The notes below the pieces were generated by a model, which saw only the letters and a program-made list of their open reading frames with translations, searched no databases and was not told the origin of the DNA. The position numbers and the translations under genes are program-made. Source: a virus. Taken from it: 30,722 nucleotides of DNA. The DNA is taken from the UHGV virus genome UHGV-0024034; one strand, given 5' to 3'. This document shows positions 158-9,537 of the stretch, piece after piece (positions within the stretch are counted from its first letter, which is position 1; every line of letters begins with the position of its first letter).

Positions 158-1207
158 TTATGCAACCTCTGCCGCCACATTGTCGCCAACATACAGCGAT
201 AACGGATTGAGGGTTACAGCTTGTTCAAGGTGGTCAGGAGCAAAGTGCGCATACTTCATTGTTTCTCGAATATTGGCATGTCCGAGAATTTTCTGCAGCA
301 CCAGTATATTCCCTCCGTTCATCATAAAATGCGCACCAAAAGTATGACGCAAAACGTGCGTCTTCTGCCCTTCCGTCAATTCAATATTCGTTAGTTTGAG
401 CATCTTTTTAAACTCCTGATAGCAGGGTTTAAACATTCTGCCTTGACGTACGGACAACTCGTCGTACAGCCATTTAGGAATAGGAACTGTGCGATTCTTC
501 TTACCTTTGGTTTTGGTGAACGTTAGTTTATATGGAGAAAGTTGAGGTCGGGTCAATCTCTCCGCTTCCCCCCATCGAGCGCCGGTTGCAAGGCACACCT
601 TAACAATCATGGTGAGGTCTTCTTTGCCGTATTGCTCGCAGGCTCGAAACAGCTCCGGGAGCTGAGACAAAGTTAGCCAGGACATTTCTTTCTCAGCTTC
701 TTTGAATACTCGGATCCCATCAAGTGGATTGGGTAGGCTCCACTCCCCTAACCGGCGGAGCTCATTAAACACTGCTTCTAGGTATTGTTGTTCGCGATTG
801 ACGGTTATAGGTTTGGCGATCCATTTCGAGGGGTCTTTATGATAACCATTGTCTATTTCACCACGTAATCGACGGTCACGATAATGAGCCCAGTCTTTCG
901 CGGTAAGGCGAGATGCAATCGGGTCGCCAAGTCCATTACATACGATTTGAAGCTTTGCAAATCTCGACTTACTGGCGACTAACGCTTGACCGTGCAAATT
1001 GTGCCAAAGCTGAATAATCTCGCTTAAGCGTCGGCGGTCTTCTTTCTTGCCGAGCCACGGCTTATCTTCACTCTCGCTTTTGGTAAATGCTTCAAATGCC
1101 TCGGCCTCACCTTTGGTATTGAACTGCCGACGTATACGCCGCCCTTCTCGACCATTTGGATAGAGTTCACACAACCATTTTCCACTTTTTTGTTTACTTA
1201 CAGTCAT
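158..1207 (-). CDS. int: Tyrosine integrase, P2 Int-like
   Basis: 349-aa ORF; N-terminal GRxGxRIRRxF and C-terminal HxLRHTFxxHFMMNGG...YAHFAP motifs typical of the P2 integrase family; adjacent to attL. Confidence 0.95.
   Translation of the reverse strand: MTVSKQKSGKWLCELYPNGREGRRIRRQFNTKGEAEAFEAFTKSESEDKPWLGKKEDRRRLSEIIQLWHNLHGQALVASKSRFAKLQIVCNGLGDPIASRLTAKDWAHYRDRRLRGEIDNGYHKDPSKWIAKPITVNREQQYLEAVFNELRRLGEWSLPNPLDGIRVFKEAEKEMSWLTLSQLPELFRACEQYGKEDLTMIVKVCLATGARWGEAERLTRPQLSPYKLTFTKTKGKKNRTVPIPKWLYDELSVRQGRMFKPCYQEFKKMLKLTNIELTEGQKTHVLRHTFGAHFMMNGGNILVLQKILGHANIRETMKYAHFAPDHLEQAVTLNPLSLYVGDNVAAEVA
163..190. repeat. attP arm repeat (candidate integrase arm-type site), copy 1
   Basis: CAACCTCTGCCGCCACATTGTCGCCAAC, about 24/28 identical to 30542..30569 in the same orientation; overlaps the int 3' end. 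Confidence 0.4.
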
Positions 1208-1231: not shown

Positions 1232-1570
1232 TTAATTACAAAGGGCTGTAGCGGCATCAATCACCGGTGAAATTGAAATTTTAACGCCGTCATACTCAGG
1301 GTCATCCTTCCATACGTCATCTAAGTTAGACCCCTCCAGCTTTCCTGATTTAACAGCATCTACCGCCATGCCATTCAGAGGATATCTATCATCAGTTTTG
1401 ATGTCATACACAAAAGCATAAGCACGGTTAACACATGATACCTTTGCCTTTTCAAAGGTTAGAGGCCACTTGTCACCATATGCAGCGCCGTCTATCTCTT
1501 TAAACTTCTCAGCGGCTATGGCTGAGGAAGAAAGTGCAATGCAGACTATCGCAAATATAAACTTTTTCAT
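1232..1570 (-). CDS. Small secreted protein (signal peptide, two Cys), accessory gene downstream of cI
   Basis: 112 aa; N-terminus MKKFIFAIVCIALSSSAIA is a typical Sec signal peptide; GGAG Shine-Dalgarno 5 nt before the ATG, only 9 bp after the cI stop; locally AT-richer than the structural genes. Confidence 0.6.
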   Translation of the reverse strand: MKKFIFAIVCIALSSSAIAAEKFKEIDGAAYGDKWPLTFEKAKVSCVNRAYAFVYDIKTDDRYPLNGMAVDAVKSGKLEGSNLDDVWKDDPEYDGVKISISPVIDAATALCN

Positions 1571-1579
1571 TACTGCTCC

Positions 1580-2425
1580 TTAAACATGCTTTTCCAAAGT
1601 AAAAATAACCGCACCTGATGGTGTGATATCTGAAATATTACATTCAAACTCAGCAGACTTATTTGATAACCTGACCTTTCCGCCTGGCAACCTGATTACG
1701 TCAAAAACATCGAGTGCGCCATCAATACCAATAAGCCAGCGACCATTTCCTATCTTCGAGTTAGAACTATCAACAAGCCAAGATGTGCTCACACCATCAA
1801 TAAACACTAAATCATCAGTATTTGATGGAACCATAGATATATCAGGAGTCCAGCGTCCGATATCTTTGAGTTCGCCAGCCTCGAGGCGGCACTTTCTAAT
1901 CGTTAAAGCATTTGCCGGTTCACCATCATTACTGTTACGCATCTGGCCTTTTCCGGTTGATAACCATTCTAACGATACGCCAGTATCAAGGGCGCAAGTG
2001 ACAACCACGTCACCGGGGAAAAAATCGCGTCTAACCCAAGTGCTTATAGTGCCGGAAGATATACCTAATAAATCTCCAAGCTCTTTTTGCAGAGTAAAAC
2101 CATACGCATCGAGAATCCGACGCAGAACCGCCCTCCCTCCATTTGCCATGATTTCATCATAGAGTTGCTTACCTTTAAGCTTAGTTTTCACCACTTCAAA
2201 TCTTGCATTTGCAAGCTCACCATTAATTAGCCATCGCAGGTCAGCTCCAGTATCAAGAGCACACTCAACGAAAACGTTGCTAGGGATTACGTTTCTAGCA
2301 AGCCAGCTACTCACGTTGTTTGCATGTATGCCAAGCCTTTCGGCTAGTTCCTTTTGCTGCTTAAAGCCGTATGCAGAAAGGACACGTTCCAATGCGGCAG
2401 ACGCATTAACATCATTTTTAGACAT
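1580..2425 (-). CDS. cI: CI-type immunity repressor (186 CI-like) with tandemly duplicated N-terminal HTH domain
   Basis: Two internal repeats (..VLSAYGFKQQKELAERLGIHANNVSSWLARNVIPSNVFVECALDTGADLRWL.. and ..ILDAYGFTLQKELGDLLGISSGTISTWVRRDFFPGDVVVTCALDTGVSLEWL..) resembling the 186 CI HTH domain, plus a C-terminal domain. Start taken at Met-64 of the ORF-track frame, because the upstream part of the ORF runs through the promoter region. Confidence 0.8.
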   Translation of the reverse strand: MSKNDVNASAALERVLSAYGFKQQKELAERLGIHANNVSSWLARNVIPSNVFVECALDTGADLRWLINGELANARFEVVKTKLKGKQLYDEIMANGGRAVLRRILDAYGFTLQKELGDLLGISSGTISTWVRRDFFPGDVVVTCALDTGVSLEWLSTGKGQMRNSNDGEPANALTIRKCRLEAGELKDIGRWTPDISMVPSNTDDLVFIDGVSTSWLVDSSNSKIGNGRWLIGIDGALDVFDVIRLPGGKVRLSNKSAEFECNISDITPSGAVIFTLEKHV

Positions 2426-4479: not shown

Positions 4480-6702
4480 TTGGCTGTTCAATTCGCTTAT
4501 CCGTGGAACGTCCCACGGTCGGCAATCTCCAGCCCATACCTTACTTATGAGCAACAGCATCGCCGCGACCGTATGTTCGCGGCTTTGCTGCATGCAAAAA
4601 AGGTGCTTTCTCTCCAGCCCGACTGCGTGCGGTTAGATGTTTATCGCACTGCTGCGGTGCTGGAGCAAAATCAGGGTAGTCAACGAGCCAATGCATTTTT
4701 AATCAGCTTCTGCAAAAAGGCATTGCCGCGTCTTGAACTGGTCGCAAAAAAATACGAATGCGCTGGTATCAACAGCAAGGTATCAACCGCTGTTTTTGGA
4801 AGTCATTTTGATACTCAGCAAATGCAATATCTGTCGTCACGCATGGTTAATATGGTCGCCCAATATAACCGTCTCCCGGACATGTCGCGCGCTGATGTTG
4901 ACCTGTTGGCCGCTGATATTGCTAATTTCATTCGTGGTGAACTTGCCAACATTAATGACCACGGATTCGGCGAGCTTAAAACGCTGTACACCTGGTATAT
5001 TCGTGCTGGCTTTATTTCCCTCCAATTCAACGTTATCCCACCACATTGGGAGCGGGTTGAAAAAAAATATGTCGGTGCGGATGAAATCGCACCGGCTATC
5101 GCCAAAATGTTTAACGATGGGTGGTGGCGCGGTCGTTTGCGCCGTGTTGCAGCTACGTGGCGCGAACACCTGCAAATTGCAGTCGGCAACGTCAGTAAGA
5201 AAAAAAACACTTACGCGAGTAAAAACTGCGTGACTGACTGGCGTGAACAAAAGCGCCGCACTCGTGAATTTCTCAAAGGTCTGGATCTCGAAGACGAAGA
5301 CGGCAACCGTATCAGCCTAATTGAAAAATATGATGGCTCAGTTGCTAACCCTGCGATTCGCCGCTGTGAGCTCATGACCCGCATTCGTGGGTTTGAAAAC
5401 ATCTGTAATGAGCTCGGTTATGTCGGTGAGTTTTACACTCTAACCGCGCCGTCAAAATATCACGCCACGACTAAAGCCGGTTACCGTAACAGCAAATGGA
5501 GCGGTGCCAGCCCGGCTGACACGCAAAACTATCTAACCGGTATCTGGGCGCGTATCCGTGCCAAACTACATCGGGAAGATGTCCGTATTTTCGGTATTCG
5601 TGTCGCCGAGCCCCATCACGACGGCACTCCACACTGGCACATGCTGATGTTCATGCTGCCGGAAGATGTTGAATATGTTCGCTCCATCGTCCGTAAATAC
5701 GCATGGAAAGAAGACCGCCACGAACTGAAAAGCGATAAATCCAAAAAAGCACGTTTCCACGCCGAGTCCATTGACCCGGAGAAAGGCAGCGCAACCGGCT
5801 ATGTTGCTAAATACATTTCAAAAAATATCGACGGTTATGCTCTCGATGGTGAAACCGATGATGAAAGCGGTGAGCTGCTGAAAGAGACAGCCCCCGCCGT
5901 TTCAGCATGGGCTGCGCGCTGGCACATCCGTCAGTTTCAGTTTATTGGTGGTGCGCCGGTGACGGTTTACCGTGAGTTGCGTCGCCTCGCTGATACCGAA
6001 ACCGCGCACGGTCTGAGCGTTGAGTTTGCCGCCGTCCATGATGCCGCCGACGCTGGTGACTGGGCTGGTTATGTTAATGCTCAGGGTGGGCCGTTTGTCC
6101 GTCGCGATGATTTACAGGTGCGCACACTGTATGAACCGCGCACCGAGCTTAATCAGTACGGTGAGGAAACGGTATGTATTAAGGGGGTCTACGATTCCTC
6201 CATAGGTGCAGGAAGCCCGATTTTAACCCGGCTCACTCAGTGGAAGATTGTTCCGAAGCGTGCTGTTGATTTGGCCGTTGACCTTCAGGACGGCAAAGCC
6301 GTCCCTCGGAGTTCTGTCAATAACTGTACGGGAAGCGAAAGCGATCCACCGATACTGGATTTAACAAAACCACTGAGTCGGCGTGAAAGACGAGAATTGA
6401 CCAACCGACTCAGGAAGCAAAAGCCAGCAGCACGGCGAAAATTCATCCACGGAACGGATGAGCAAAACGCAGCTATAGCTAAAACTATCGATGAGATACA
6501 TCTGACAACCGGCATTAATATCAGCCGGGGCGAAGCCCTGCACCTGATGGCCGGTGGTAAAAGTTGTTTTGATGGTAAATGGCTACGCGGAACGGCCAAA
6601 GGAGAAATATTTTCCGCAGCACCATCGCATGAGGCTAAAGCTCGGAAAATCCTTAATCGTGTTGCGGCGATGGCTGAAGCATCAAAACCAATACATGAGT
6701 AA
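4480..6702 (+). CDS. A: Replication initiation endonuclease gpA (rolling-circle initiator)
   Basis: 740 aa; conserved EPHHDGTPHWHMLMF and GYVAKYISKNIDGYALDG motifs; N-terminus aligns with P2 gpA; apparent TTG start with a G-rich RBS. Confidence 0.95.
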   Translation: MAVQFAYPWNVPRSAISSPYLTYEQQHRRDRMFAALLHAKKVLSLQPDCVRLDVYRTAAVLEQNQGSQRANAFLISFCKKALPRLELVAKKYECAGINSKVSTAVFGSHFDTQQMQYLSSRMVNMVAQYNRLPDMSRADVDLLAADIANFIRGELANINDHGFGELKTLYTWYIRAGFISLQFNVIPPHWERVEKKYVGADEIAPAIAKMFNDGWWRGRLRRVAATWREHLQIAVGNVSKKKNTYASKNCVTDWREQKRRTREFLKGLDLEDEDGNRISLIEKYDGSVANPAIRRCELMTRIRGFENICNELGYVGEFYTLTAPSKYHATTKAGYRNSKWSGASPADTQNYLTGIWARIRAKLHREDVRIFGIRVAEPHHDGTPHWHMLMFMLPEDVEYVRSIVRKYAWKEDRHELKSDKSKKARFHAESIDPEKGSATGYVAKYISKNIDGYALDGETDDESGELLKETAPAVSAWAARWHIRQFQFIGGAPVTVYRELRRLADTETAHGLSVEFAAVHDAADAGDWAGYVNAQGGPFVRRDDLQVRTLYEPRTELNQYGEETVCIKGVYDSSIGAGSPILTRLTQWKIVPKRAVDLAVDLQDGKAVPRSSVNNCTGSESDPPILDLTKPLSRRERRELTNRLRKQKPAARRKFIHGTDEQNAAIAKTIDEIHLTTGINISRGEALHLMAGGKSCFDGKWLRGTAKGEIFSAAPSHEAKARKILNRVAAMAEASKPIHE

Positions 6703-6776
6703 TTCATATCCATATCATGCACATACAGCAATCGCTCTATTCGTTTTTTTTCTTCCCATCTTTTGCCAATACGTGC

Positions 6777-6796
6777 TACTGTATAAATATACAGTA
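6777..6796. promoter_or_regulatory. LexA box (SOS operator) TACTGTATAAATATACAGTA
   Basis: Perfect CTGT-N8-ACAG palindrome with an AT-rich core; -35-like TTGCCA at 6763..6768; about 20 bp upstream of the ORF at 6816. Confidence 0.8.
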
Positions 6797-6815
6797 ACCC
6801 TGTGGGAGGGATTTC

Positions 6816-6998
6816 ATGGTTGGCGAACATTTCAGCCGAACGCAGCAAAAGTGGGCTTGTGTGCAATTTATTGCCGAGGTATCTCTGATTGCAAACTGCA
6901 AGCCATCAGACTTAAAGCTCGCGCTCACTCTCATTGCAGACCTAGCAAACAGCGAAAATAACGAAACCGAAGATGATAATTTTTATAAGGCTGATTAG
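6816..6998 (+). CDS. Small protein in LexA-controlled operon; candidate Tum-like antirepressor N-terminal part
   Basis: 60-aa ORF with GGGAGGG RBS directly downstream of the LexA box; function inferred from context only. Confidence 0.45.
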   Translation: MVGEHFSRTQQKWACVQFIAEVSLIANCKPSDLKLALTLIADLANSENNETEDDNFYKAD

Positions 6999-7001
6999 AT
7001 T

Positions 7002-7235
7002 ATGAGAATCAATATCACGTTGGATAAAGAGCAAAAAATTAGTCAGGCAACATTGGATGCACTTGAGGCTGAACTGTACCGCAATCTTCAACCTATTTAC
7101 CCAAAGACTGCTATCCGAATTCGCAAGGGCTCCGCTAATGGCGTTGAACTAAGCGGTTTGAAACTGGACGAAGATAAAAAACGAGTAATGGAAATCATGC
7201 AGCAGGTATGGGAGGACGATAGCTGGCTGCATTAA
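7002..7235 (+). CDS. DinI-family protein
   Basis: 77 aa, MRINITLDK...LDALEAELYRNLQ...EIMQQVWEDDSWLH; same length and pattern as E. coli DinI as I recall it (MRI.V...DAL..EL.R...I.Q..WE..D.W). Confidence 0.75.
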   Translation: MRINITLDKEQKISQATLDALEAELYRNLQPIYPKTAIRIRKGSANGVELSGLKLDEDKKRVMEIMQQVWEDDSWLH

Positions 7236-7237
7236 CA

Positions 7238-7306
7238 AACGCCGCCGGTGCTGAAACTTGCTTTCAGTGCTGGCGGGGTTGAACAACTCGCACCGCGAGG
7301 CGCTAG
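7238..7306 (+). repeat. Hairpin-containing 69-bp repeat, copy 1 (15-bp stem 7242..7256 / 7262..7276)
   Basis: Direct repeat of 7643..7711 with about 9 mismatches; imperfect inverted repeat forms a stem with G-U pairs on the plus-strand RNA only; begins immediately after the stop codon of the DinI-like ORF. Confidence 0.6.
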
Positions 7307-7430
7307 TTCTTCCTCTCAAAGTTTCTCGATGTTTTATTGGTTACACACCAGTGATGAATGGGACGTTACCTTAGCGGGTTTTATAGTGGCGCTGTGGCAG
7401 CGCTAAATAAAATTCATTGAGGGCGATAAT

Positions 7431-7640
7431 ATGCATCGACTACCGGGCGAAATTCCGCAGCACAAAACTAAAAGCATCAAACTGATGGCCATCGTTCATC
7501 GTCTGCAGCAGATAATGGTCAATGAGAATTTGACACCCGCCGAGCTGGTCGGGTGTGCCGAAATAGTCAGGGATAATTACGGCAAGCTGGATAGCATCAG
7601 CAAGCCGACACATTACTCACCGCCACCACGTCGACCATAG
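7431..7640 (+). CDS. Hypothetical protein
   Basis: 69-aa ORF with GAGGG RBS, flanked on both sides by the hairpin repeats. Confidence 0.4.
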   Translation: MHRLPGEIPQHKTKSIKLMAIVHRLQQIMVNENLTPAELVGCAEIVRDNYGKLDSISKPTHYSPPPRRP

Positions 7641-7642
7641 AT

Positions 7643-7711
7643 AACGCCGCCGGAGCTGAAACTCGCTTTCAGGTCTGGCGGGGTTGAACAACGAGCTACG
7701 CGAGGCGTTAG
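7643..7711 (+). repeat. Hairpin-containing 69-bp repeat, copy 2 (stem 7647..7661 / 7667..7681)
   Basis: See copy 1; begins immediately after the stop codon of the ORF at 7431..7640. Confidence 0.6.
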
Positions 7712-7773
7712 CCGGTCATAGCGTCGCAAATACTTCAACCGTCTGCTGGTTAAATAATTCGAGGTTTTTGGAC

Positions 7774-7968
7774 ATGCAAAATCCCCTTTCATCGAAAAAT
7801 GACCCGTTTGCCGATTGGGCAAAGAATCTGACTTTAATGGCTTTAAATAACGACCTGAGCTCTCGCGAGGTGGAAAGCTACACCGCAAAAATGGTCGAGC
7901 AGGCCGGTAAAGATGAGCTATCAGTCGTTATCAAACACCTGTTAAATCACATCAGAATGCGCAAATAA
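7774..7968 (+). CDS. Hypothetical protein
   Basis: 64-aa ORF from an internal Met of the ORF-track entry 7684..7968, whose N-terminal part lies inside repeat copy 2; weak RBS. Confidence 0.35.
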   Translation: MQNPLSSKNDPFADWAKNLTLMALNNDLSSREVESYTAKMVEQAGKDELSVVIKHLLNHIRMRK

Positions 7969-7984
7969 GAGGAACTATATAAAT

Positions 7985-8086
7985 ATGTTATCTCTCGTTT
8001 ATGAAAATCCGTGGACGACGATTTTTCTGATGATTTTTGCCAGCATGTGCCTCAACAGTGTTATTGGCGCATTGCGCGGCCATTAA
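7985..8086 (+). CDS. 33-aa hydrophobic peptide (candidate small membrane protein)
   Basis: MLSLVYENPWTTIFLMIFASMCLNSVIGALRGH; AAGAGG RBS about 11 nt upstream; followed by a strong terminator. Below the 60-aa cut-off of the ORF track. Confidence 0.3.
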   Translation: MLSLVYENPWTTIFLMIFASMCLNSVIGALRGH

Positions 8087-8104
8087 TCGCGACAAAACCA
8101 GACT

Positions 8105-8134
8105 AAAACCGGCACCCTGAATGCCGGTTTTTTT
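8105..8134 (+). terminator. Rho-independent terminator
   Basis: Stem ACCGGCA/TGCCGGT (8108..8114 / 8122..8128), 7-nt loop, then a run of seven T; preceded by an A-run, so possibly bidirectional. Confidence 0.7.
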
Positions 8135-8294
8135 ATGCCATTTTTCCGCGAATTTCCCGTTTTTTAGTCGTGCATGCATTAGGTGCATGGTTTTGCATGC
8201 GTCAGTCTTGCCCGTTCTGTCCGTGCGCCGCCAGAGCTAGCGCGGATCCAGAGTTGTCATGCAACTGCATTAAAACCGCCCCATAAAGCGGGCA

Positions 8295-8313
8295 GGCGTG
8301 GCGGGGAAAGCAT
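8295..8313 (+). other. cos: cos site, 19-nt cohesive-end sequence GGCGTGGCGGGGAAAGCAT
   Basis: Exact match to the 186 cohesive end as I recall it (P2 differs at two positions); lies between the replication side and the packaging genes, as expected in a P2-type prophage. Confidence 0.7.
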
Positions 8314-8532
8314 TGCGCGCCAGCAGTGATGCATAATAATAAAAATTATCCTCTGAGCGCGTCGTGATGGCGCTGTCGTGGTCGCTGCTGGTTCGTTGGT
8401 GGTCGAGTGTGTTCGTGCGCGTGAGACGCATCTGATGCGTGATGGTGGTGTGCATGGAAAAGCCACCAGGAGCAGCGGCTTTACAGGAGTGGCAGGATTC
8501 AAACTGCTAATTATGTTTCTACTATGATTAAA

Positions 8533-9537
8533 CTAATTTACATGTATGTAGAGTTCACCGTCGCCAGACCAATCGGGACACTCTAAAACAAGCCCAAACT
8601 GCTTGAATATTTCATCAATGATTATTGTTATCTCCCGAAAATCACCAAAACCTGTAATGTGCTGGTCATTAAACTTCCCATAAAGATTCTGAAAAGCAAT
8701 GCCTAATTCTGATAATTGATATCTTATCTTTGAGTTGGATAGTGTAAGGGATAGCTTTGGATCGTATTCTTTAATATTGATGTTTAGAGAATGGACATAA
8801 CCCATCGCATAAGCATAAGAGTTGATGATTAGCCTGATACGTTTTTTTACTTCAAGATACATGTCATTCAGAGAAATATTACCGTACTTATAACCCCAGA
8901 TGAGTTTTTCAATCTCGTCAGATACTTCATTTACAACAGTGTCAAGATTCTCTAAAAATAAATCGATAGTTTCTTGAGGGGCAGACCCCGAAGACATGTA
9001 ATTAGCGAGATATTCAGACCATGCACGCGTGGCTGAGATAAGAAGCGCGCTACCATACTCGTTGACTGTAAAGTTTTGGGCTAAGCATGTTAGTAAGTTT
9101 TTTTCATGTACGTGCACTAATTCATGGTGAATGCGATGGATGACTGCGAGGTATCCTTCTTCTTTCAGTTTTAAGAAGCTACCATCATTGAAAAGCTCAA
9201 CAAAAAAATCAATCGATAGCACAAGGGTATATTCTTCACATAGCCCATCATTGCCAATTTTTGTTACTAACTGCCCGACGGCTGCGCCCTGTTTGCTATT
9301 GGTAAATGAACTAGGGGATTTGTGTTGGTAAGAGGATGTTACCTTTTGAAGAGCTTCACTGAAGTTATAGGAAACAATCACGCATTTTAATTTGGAGATA
9401 TCAAGATTGAGATTTTTTGTTAAAGCTCGGATAGCTTCTAGTGTGAAATTACCGATATTATTTGCTTCTTGCTCAGTAGCGAAACCTTCGAGGGTTATTT
9501 TAAAATCAGTTTCCAAAATATTAATCTCCGCGCCCAT
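8533..9537 (-). CDS. AT-rich orphan protein with HExxH motif; candidate anti-phage or abortive-infection effector
   Basis: 334-aa ORF, markedly AT-rich by eye relative to the GC-rich flanks; HELVHVHE at residues 138..145 (nt 9126..9103); no resemblance to P2/186 core proteins that I recognise; lies between cos and portal gene Q. Confidence 0.6.
   Translation of the reverse strand: MGAEINILETDFKITLEGFATEQEANNIGNFTLEAIRALTKNLNLDISKLKCVIVSYNFSEALQKVTSSYQHKSPSSFTNSKQGAAVGQLVTKIGNDGLCEEYTLVLSIDFFVELFNDGSFLKLKEEGYLAVIHRIHHELVHVHEKNLLTCLAQNFTVNEYGSALLISATRAWSEYLANYMSSGSAPQETIDLFLENLDTVVNEVSDEIEKLIWGYKYGNISLNDMYLEVKKRIRLIINSYAYAMGYVHSLNINIKEYDPKLSLTLSNSKIRYQLSELGIAFQNLYGKFNDQHITGFGDFREITIIIDEIFKQFGLVLECPDWSGDGELYIHVN

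Follow-up and report, generated by a model that had tools for sequence, protein, structure and literature searches.

A probable SOS induction operon of split tumA-tumB type in a PSP3/186-like prophage of Escherichia coli

The tum operon of prophage UHGV-0024034

The virus genome UHGV-0024034 was analysed over its full length of 30,722 nucleotides, referred to here as the window, which reads as a complete P2-like prophage of the 186/PSP3 group (Eganvirus) of Escherichia coli. Directly after replication gene A, behind a predicted LexA-repressed promoter, it carries two short adjacent genes, tumA and tumB. This region is very probably the operon by which the SOS response induces this PSP3/186-type prophage; the first gene would encode an antirepressor of the immunity repressor CI and the second a DinI-like accessory protein. 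The features of the operon are as follows.

6753-6758, plus strand: -35-like hexamer TTCCCA of a p95-type promoter, one base off the annotated -35 hexamer TTCACA of the phage 186 promoter p95
6777-6782, plus strand: -10-like hexamer TACTGT inside the LexA box, the same as the annotated -10 hexamer of 186 p95
6777-6796, plus strand: predicted LexA operator (SOS box) TACTGTATAAATATACAGTA, from its consensus match and its homology to the annotated LexA site of 186
6805-6809, plus strand: putative ribosome-binding site GGAGG for tumA, read from the sequence, 6 nucleotides before the ATG at 6816
6816-6998, plus strand: tumA, presumed CI antirepressor of 60 amino acids, from identity to PSP3 TumA, a match to phrog_1993 and a profile test
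7002-7235, plus strand: tumB, DinI-family protein of 77 amino acids, from a match to Pfam DinI, beginning 3 nucleotides past the tumA stop codon
7238-7280, plus strand: strong hairpin just past tumB, located where 186 has its partial terminator t95a (-35.9 kcal/mol, z -5.6)

The original prediction had described a CTGT-N8-ACAG LexA box about 20 bp before an open reading frame (ORF) of 60 amino acids, followed after a gap of 3 nucleotides by a DinI-like ORF of 77 amino acids, and all of these elements were recovered. The CTGT-N8-ACAG motif has a single occurrence in the 30.7-kb window (6779-6794), against 0.34 expected by chance; 26 of 100 shuffled windows contain at least one. The full operator TACTGTATAAATATACAGTA agrees with the 20-nucleotide LexA consensus TACTGTATATATATACAGTA at 19 of 20 positions, the single mismatch being central, and a search for this consensus allowing up to three mismatches returned zero matches in dinucleotide-preserving shuffles. 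The operator ends at 6796 and is separated by 19 nucleotides from the start of the 60-amino-acid ORF at 6816. A second CTGT-N8-ACAG site, found within gp28 of PSP3-type phages (942-957 in locus L006, GACTGTCTTTCCAAACAGCA), was judged to be a chance occurrence, given its poor match to the consensus, its position in a coding region and its absence from the window.

The operator coincides with the -10 element of a sequence homologous to the annotated p95 promoter of phage 186. From a run of T residues at about position 6745 through the end of the box the alignment of the two regions matches nearly base for base, and the spacer between the -35 and -10 hexamers is 18 bp in both. It is on this homology that the assignment of a putative p95-type promoter rests. 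The locus can thus be recognised, as originally proposed, as a counterpart of the LexA-controlled tum operon of 186, promoter and operator both being homologous. In an alignment of seven diverged loci (the window, 186, ENT90, YenM_324 and loci from Kosakonia, Buttiauxella and Salmonella), the operator core ACTGTAT-N5-TACAGT is invariant while the flanks have drifted.

TumA, TumB and their described relatives

Phages 186, PSP3, Fels-2 and SopEphi are inducible by ultraviolet (UV) light owing to tum (Lavigne et al. 2009, PMC2771037), and a p95-tum fragment is by itself enough to make a 186 switch reporter derepressible by UV (Murchland et al. 2020, PMC7708051). The Tum protein binds CI and blocks its binding to the operator (PMC3121763), while in PSP3 and Fels-2 the tum gene is split by a stop codon (Lemire et al. 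2011, PMC3121763). The window belongs with the latter arrangement. Over 851 bases around the operon it shares 94% DNA identity with Salmonella phage PSP3 (AY135486 / NC_005340), whose record annotates tumA as "similar to 5' end 186 tum; UV induction of prophage" and tumB as "similar to dinI and 3' end of 186 tum". The two phages are alike in the place of the module after gene A, the LexA box, the ORFs of 60 and 77 amino acids, the 3-nucleotide gap between them and a CI repressor with a doubled helix-turn-helix (HTH) domain, and their proteins are nearly the same, with 59 of 60 residues identical in TumA (98%) and 76 of 77 in TumB (99%). However, they differ in their host (Salmonella for PSP3, E. 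coli here), in the cargo genes downstream and in CI, which is 74% identical between them, mostly through a different first HTH, and this suggests a different immunity type.

The tumA gene ends in a TAG stop codon. A profile built from 107 TumA homologues scored 12.8 bits on residues 1-70 of 186 Tum, compared with a maximum of 7.0 among 5000 shuffles, and phrog_1993, an independent family, matches both TumA (E 1e-31) and residues 1-70 of 186 Tum (E 1.5e-23). Judged from these profiles and from synteny, the 60-amino-acid protein is homologous to residues 1-70 of 186 Tum. Across the family a core from K12 to A44 is near-invariant, and the AlphaFold2 model of TumA predicts a two-helix hairpin (helices at residues 8-25 and 30-51) with a predicted local distance difference test score of 71. 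In current databases TumA is a 'hypothetical protein' (RefSeq WP_000232651.1), and the TumA-like PHROGs 1993, 698, 8554 and 37919, which match one another, are all labelled 'unknown function', in contrast with the antirepressor activity assigned in the PSP3 record and in the literature.

TumB starts with its own ATG and matches the Pfam DinI family (PF06183) with an E value of 7.4e-24 and 84.3 bits (cutoff 24.2) over positions 2-63 of the 63 in the profile, which bears out the DinI-family pattern first noticed in its sequence. It also matches the structure of E. coli DinI (1GHH; E 2.6e-9) in a full-length alignment that includes the C-terminal W-E-acidic helix: the C-terminal stretch EDKKRVMEIMQQVWEDDSW of TumB aligns with this helix, several acidic residues being kept. 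Unlike E. coli DinI, TumB is phage-borne, and it is closer to the C-terminal half of Tum, with 47% identity to residues 71-145 of the 186 protein. The tumB gene starts at the point corresponding to an internal GTG start codon of 186, annotated as that of 'truncated Tum - modulates SOS induction'. By analogy, TumB most likely acts on RecA filaments in the manner of DinI, tuning the SOS response.

The operon thus resembles that of 186 in its near-identical LexA-repressed promoter and in its two modules, TumA corresponding to the N-module of Tum and TumB to its DinI-like C-module. In 186, however, both modules lie in one polypeptide of 146 amino acids, CI has a single HTH and 192 amino acids, and the operon runs on into orf97; no counterpart of orf97 was present downstream of tumB in the ORF list and the PHROG matches, a direct comparison not having been run. 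In the Fels-2 prophage of Salmonella LT2, the genes STM2728 and STM2726.1 likewise form a pair of a small ORF and a DinI-like ORF after gene A and behind a CTGT-N8-ACAG box, but the small protein (62 amino acids) belongs to the sister family phrog_698 and reaches only E 0.002 with phrog_1993, the gap between the genes is 10 nucleotides, and CI has a single HTH and 210 amino acids. The dinI-gfoA and dinI-gftA operons of the Gifsy prophages combine, under LexA control, a DinI homologue with a small antirepressor that binds the repressor and does not cleave it (PMC3121763). In these Gifsy operons, in contrast to the window, dinI comes first, and the antirepressors and repressors are lambdoid, which by description sets them apart from TumA and the 186-type CI.

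Distribution of the split layout

The original prediction regarded the division into two ORFs as an unusual arrangement, a view that did not hold. Split tumA/tumB is already known: GenBank has contained it since 2002, as annotated in PSP3 (AY135486), and it entered the literature in 2002 and 2011, with a description for PSP3 and Fels-2 (PMC3121763). A literature search for TumA together with TumB found no paper. The layout is also present in phages deposited as isolates, namely PSP3, SEN1, SW9, SI22, Midge and RCIP0057. Among 5426 complete E. coli genomes, 111 gave a match to the split module (37 at ≥80% coverage), as compared with 42 that gave a DNA match to 186 p95-tum (5 at ≥80% coverage), so that in E. 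coli the split form is no rarer than the fused one.

A search with TumA returned 208 clusters at 90% identity across Enterobacteriaceae. The best 120 of these range from 51 to 93 amino acids in length, 107 of them falling between 59 and 63, and some are named TumA by UniRef. The locus was then scored in 26 species-representative genomes encoding a TumA homologue. In all 26 a CTGT-N8-ACAG box lies just 5' of tumA, at a near-constant spacing of 19-25 nucleotides by the measure of the script used, and the tumA ORF of 59-62 amino acids has its own stop codon, with no case of fusion to a DinI domain (0/26). A DinI-like gene follows tumA within 2-18 nucleotides in nine of the genomes and is lacking in the other 17; it is lacking as well behind the LexA box and TumA homologue of the loci L015-L017, while in ENT90 and YenM_324 a LexA box precedes a lone Tum-N gene of 186-like type. 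Wherever CI was recovered in the survey, TumA strictly co-occurs with a CI of the 186 family, which has a double HTH at 20 of these 22 loci. There are therefore three architectures, in which the two modules are fused or adjacent, or the antirepressor stands alone. The LexA box and the small N-module are the constant parts, the DinI gene being optional.

Two of the surveyed assemblies, labelled 'Bacillota bacterium MAG' (L023) and 'Chryseobacterium sp. 18061' (L026), carry this same enterobacterial module, whose TumA is 84-90% and whose gpA is 77-80% identical, probably reflecting contamination or mis-binning of the assemblies.

Proposed mechanism and alternative explanations

Under the proposed mechanism, host LexA would occupy the operator at 6777-6796 in the lysogen and, because this operator overlaps the -10 element of the p95-type promoter, tumA-tumB would be kept silent. 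DNA damage would activate RecA and thereby LexA self-cleavage, upon which the operon would be transcribed. TumA, a predicted two-helix protein corresponding to about the N-terminal half of 186 Tum, would then bind and sequester CI, keeping it off its own operators, and the early lytic promoter would be freed without any cleavage of CI. TumB, the apparent counterpart of the C-terminal half of Tum and of its internally started short form, would be an accessory, probably acting on RecA filaments and dispensable for antirepression. We infer LexA binding at the predicted operator, the interaction of TumA with CI and the role of TumB from work on 186, PSP3, Fels-2 and DinI.

Several points weigh against this reading. 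The prophage of the window is known here from its sequence alone. Although the promoter-like region that the original prediction saw overlapping the operator is upheld by homology to 186 p95, its hexamers are weak by consensus and a generic sigma-70 scan of 6400-8600 called no promoter. Similarly, the expected relationship of both products to 186 Tum is evident in pairwise comparison for TumB, but BLASTP gave no alignment of the 60-amino-acid protein with 186 Tum, and because similarity at this level is lacking the homology of TumA rests on profiles, including phrog_1993, and synteny. The CI of the window has a duplicated HTH and only 32% identity to 186 CI, so that the contact with TumA could differ from that in 186. 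Finally, that the upstream gene alone carries the antirepressor activity of PSP3 comes from a personal communication, which PMC3121763 cites at second hand.

Some of these points would suit an alternative in which TumA, a small protein made under SOS induction, serves some purpose other than antirepression (exclusion or modulation of the host, for example) and another route leads to induction of the prophage. The difference in architecture between the CI of the window and that of 186 and the labels 'unknown function' of the TumA-like families and 'hypothetical protein' of TumA are compatible with such a role. However, TumA shares homology with the N-terminal half of a proven antirepressor, whose genomic position and control it keeps, and its strict co-occurrence with the 186-family CI, as well as the PSP3 genetics reported second-hand (PMC3121763), tie it to the repressor. 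Induction by another route would also have to contend with a CI for which self-cleavage is unlikely, because its C-terminal domain Phage_CI_C (PF16452) is a family distinct from the peptidase S24 of LexA and lambda CI, because no S24 match is among its listed domain matches, and by analogy with 186 CI. A role unrelated to CI is therefore considered unlikely.

A slightly less probable alternative, which we regard as improbable, is that TumA and TumB associate into a Tum-like protein and are both needed against CI, close to the original suggestion of an antirepressor function divided over the two ORFs. In 186 the modules do form one polypeptide, the 3-nucleotide distance between the genes of the window suggests coupled translation, and both proteins are highly conserved between the window and PSP3. 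Yet TumA homologues stand without a DinI gene behind a LexA box in 17 of the 26 survey genomes and in L015-L017, the 186-like Tum-N of ENT90 and YenM_324 stands alone in the same way, and the upstream gene of PSP3 is reported to be active by itself, in the personal communication cited in PMC3121763. Because the DinI gene is absent in two thirds of lineages, the survey argues that TumB is not part of the antirepressor. The same conclusion is indicated by the Gifsy prophages, in which induction did not change significantly when the co-transcribed homologue of dinI was deleted (PMC3121763).

It is hardly credible that the prophage is defective and that the stop codon between the ORFs arose only recently, by nonsense mutation of a once fused tum gene: the split does fall at the boundary between the two halves of the 186 gene, but the listed TumA homologues are all short, every surveyed tumA ends in its own stop codon and tumB begins with its own ATG, the layout recurs in the deposited isolates, the linker of 186, some 24 extra nucleotides together with diverged sequence, is absent rather than interrupted, and the survey pattern is the opposite of scattered recent split derivatives of fused genes.

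The CI repressor and a possible shared antirepressor

The presumed target of TumA lies upstream on the opposite strand.

1580-2425, minus strand (end coordinate including the stop codon): cI, immunity repressor of 281 amino acids with two tandem Phage_CI_repr HTH domains and Phage_CI_C

Seven phages whose TumA proteins are 98-100% identical carry CI repressors of which the first HTH comes in three types. The identities among these seven repressors differ by domain, as follows.

Residues 1-72: first HTH, mean pairwise identity 65%, minimum 47%
Residues 96-160: second HTH, mean pairwise identity 94%, minimum 91%
Residues 176-281: C-terminal domain, mean pairwise identity 85%, minimum 73%

This pattern suggests that the first HTH of CI sets the specificity of immunity, and that a conserved part elsewhere in the protein possibly binds the antirepressor. 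One may speculate further, and only tentatively, that the PSP3-type TumA is a shared key docking on the conserved second HTH or the C-terminal part of CI, with TumB, present in about one third of lineages, as an optional timer acting on RecA. If TumA did dock on a conserved part of CI, the TumA of one prophage would induce heteroimmune PSP3-like prophages residing in the same cell, comparable with the cross-induction of Gifsy prophages, and the duplicated HTH would uncouple operator specificity from sensitivity to the antirepressor.

Loci L025 and L026 combine a PSP3-type TumA (84% identical) with a CI whose alignment starts only at residue 70-86, which suggests a single HTH in both repressors. 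The two loci depart from the usual association of TumA and a double-HTH CI.

Prophage setting and neighbouring genes

The tum region is 100% identical in the chromosomes of E. coli 1008S13 and MB06232, and in 1008S13 the prophage adjoins yfiB. The nearest phage records include vB_EcoM-613R3, SW9, SI22, Midge, RCIP0057, SEN1 and PSP3. Apart from the operon and cI, the following genes were placed.

158-1207, minus strand: integrase gene
1232-1570, minus strand: DUF2511 gene between int and cI
4480-6702, plus strand: replication gene A
7431-7640, plus strand: small ORF, phrog_11386, equal to PSP3 gp37
7684-7968, plus strand: small ORF of 94 amino acids, phrog_2454, the match beginning at residue 31

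The window has a switch of the 186 type, consisting of CI, a gene in the position of Apl, and CII. Between cI and gene A the plus strand carries this Apl-position gene, CII, DUF5347, DUF2732 and a TraR/DksA-like gene, and tumA-tumB is followed by cargo genes and then by the portal gene. Scans of the window with Rfam and for tRNAs gave no matches. The DUF2511 gene at 1232-1570 encodes a protein with an N-terminal signal-like sequence, which is the counterpart of gp28 of PSP3 and is a 'putative periplasmic protein' in the Midge record; it is a candidate accessory gene expressed in the lysogen.

The hairpin at 7238-7280 is conserved in PSP3, but it is not a canonical intrinsic terminator because it has no U tract on the plus strand. 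Since the generic scan found no promoter-like site between tumB and the two small ORFs at 7431-7640 and 7684-7968, transcription from the SOS promoter may extend into them, as it does into orf97 in 186. PADLOC gave no matches for TumA, TumB or the downstream ORFs.

Further along, an ORF of 334 amino acids (8533-9537, minus strand) with no Pfam or PADLOC match occupies the cargo slot that separates the tum operon from the portal gene. Its relatives form 78 clusters, all labelled hypothetical. Its residues H137, H138, E139, H142, E145 and E175 are invariant. At the equivalent slot after tumA, the Buttiauxella locus L016 has an HD-CE protein of 918 amino acids (6460-9216) and the Salmonella locus L017 has GmrSD_N and HEPN_RiboL-PSP genes (6230-8076). 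These contents fit the slot beside the tum operon being a variable accessory or defence hotspot.

Implications

The value of the finding as a discovery is small and lies in the correct identification of the SOS induction module in a PSP3-like prophage. The survey adds, modestly, that the antirepressor gene is constant behind the LexA box and the DinI gene optional. The practical value of the finding is one of annotation: because TumA is labelled a 'hypothetical protein' in RefSeq and its families 'unknown function' in PHROGs, many enterobacterial P2-like prophages go unrecognised as SOS-inducible by way of an antirepressor.
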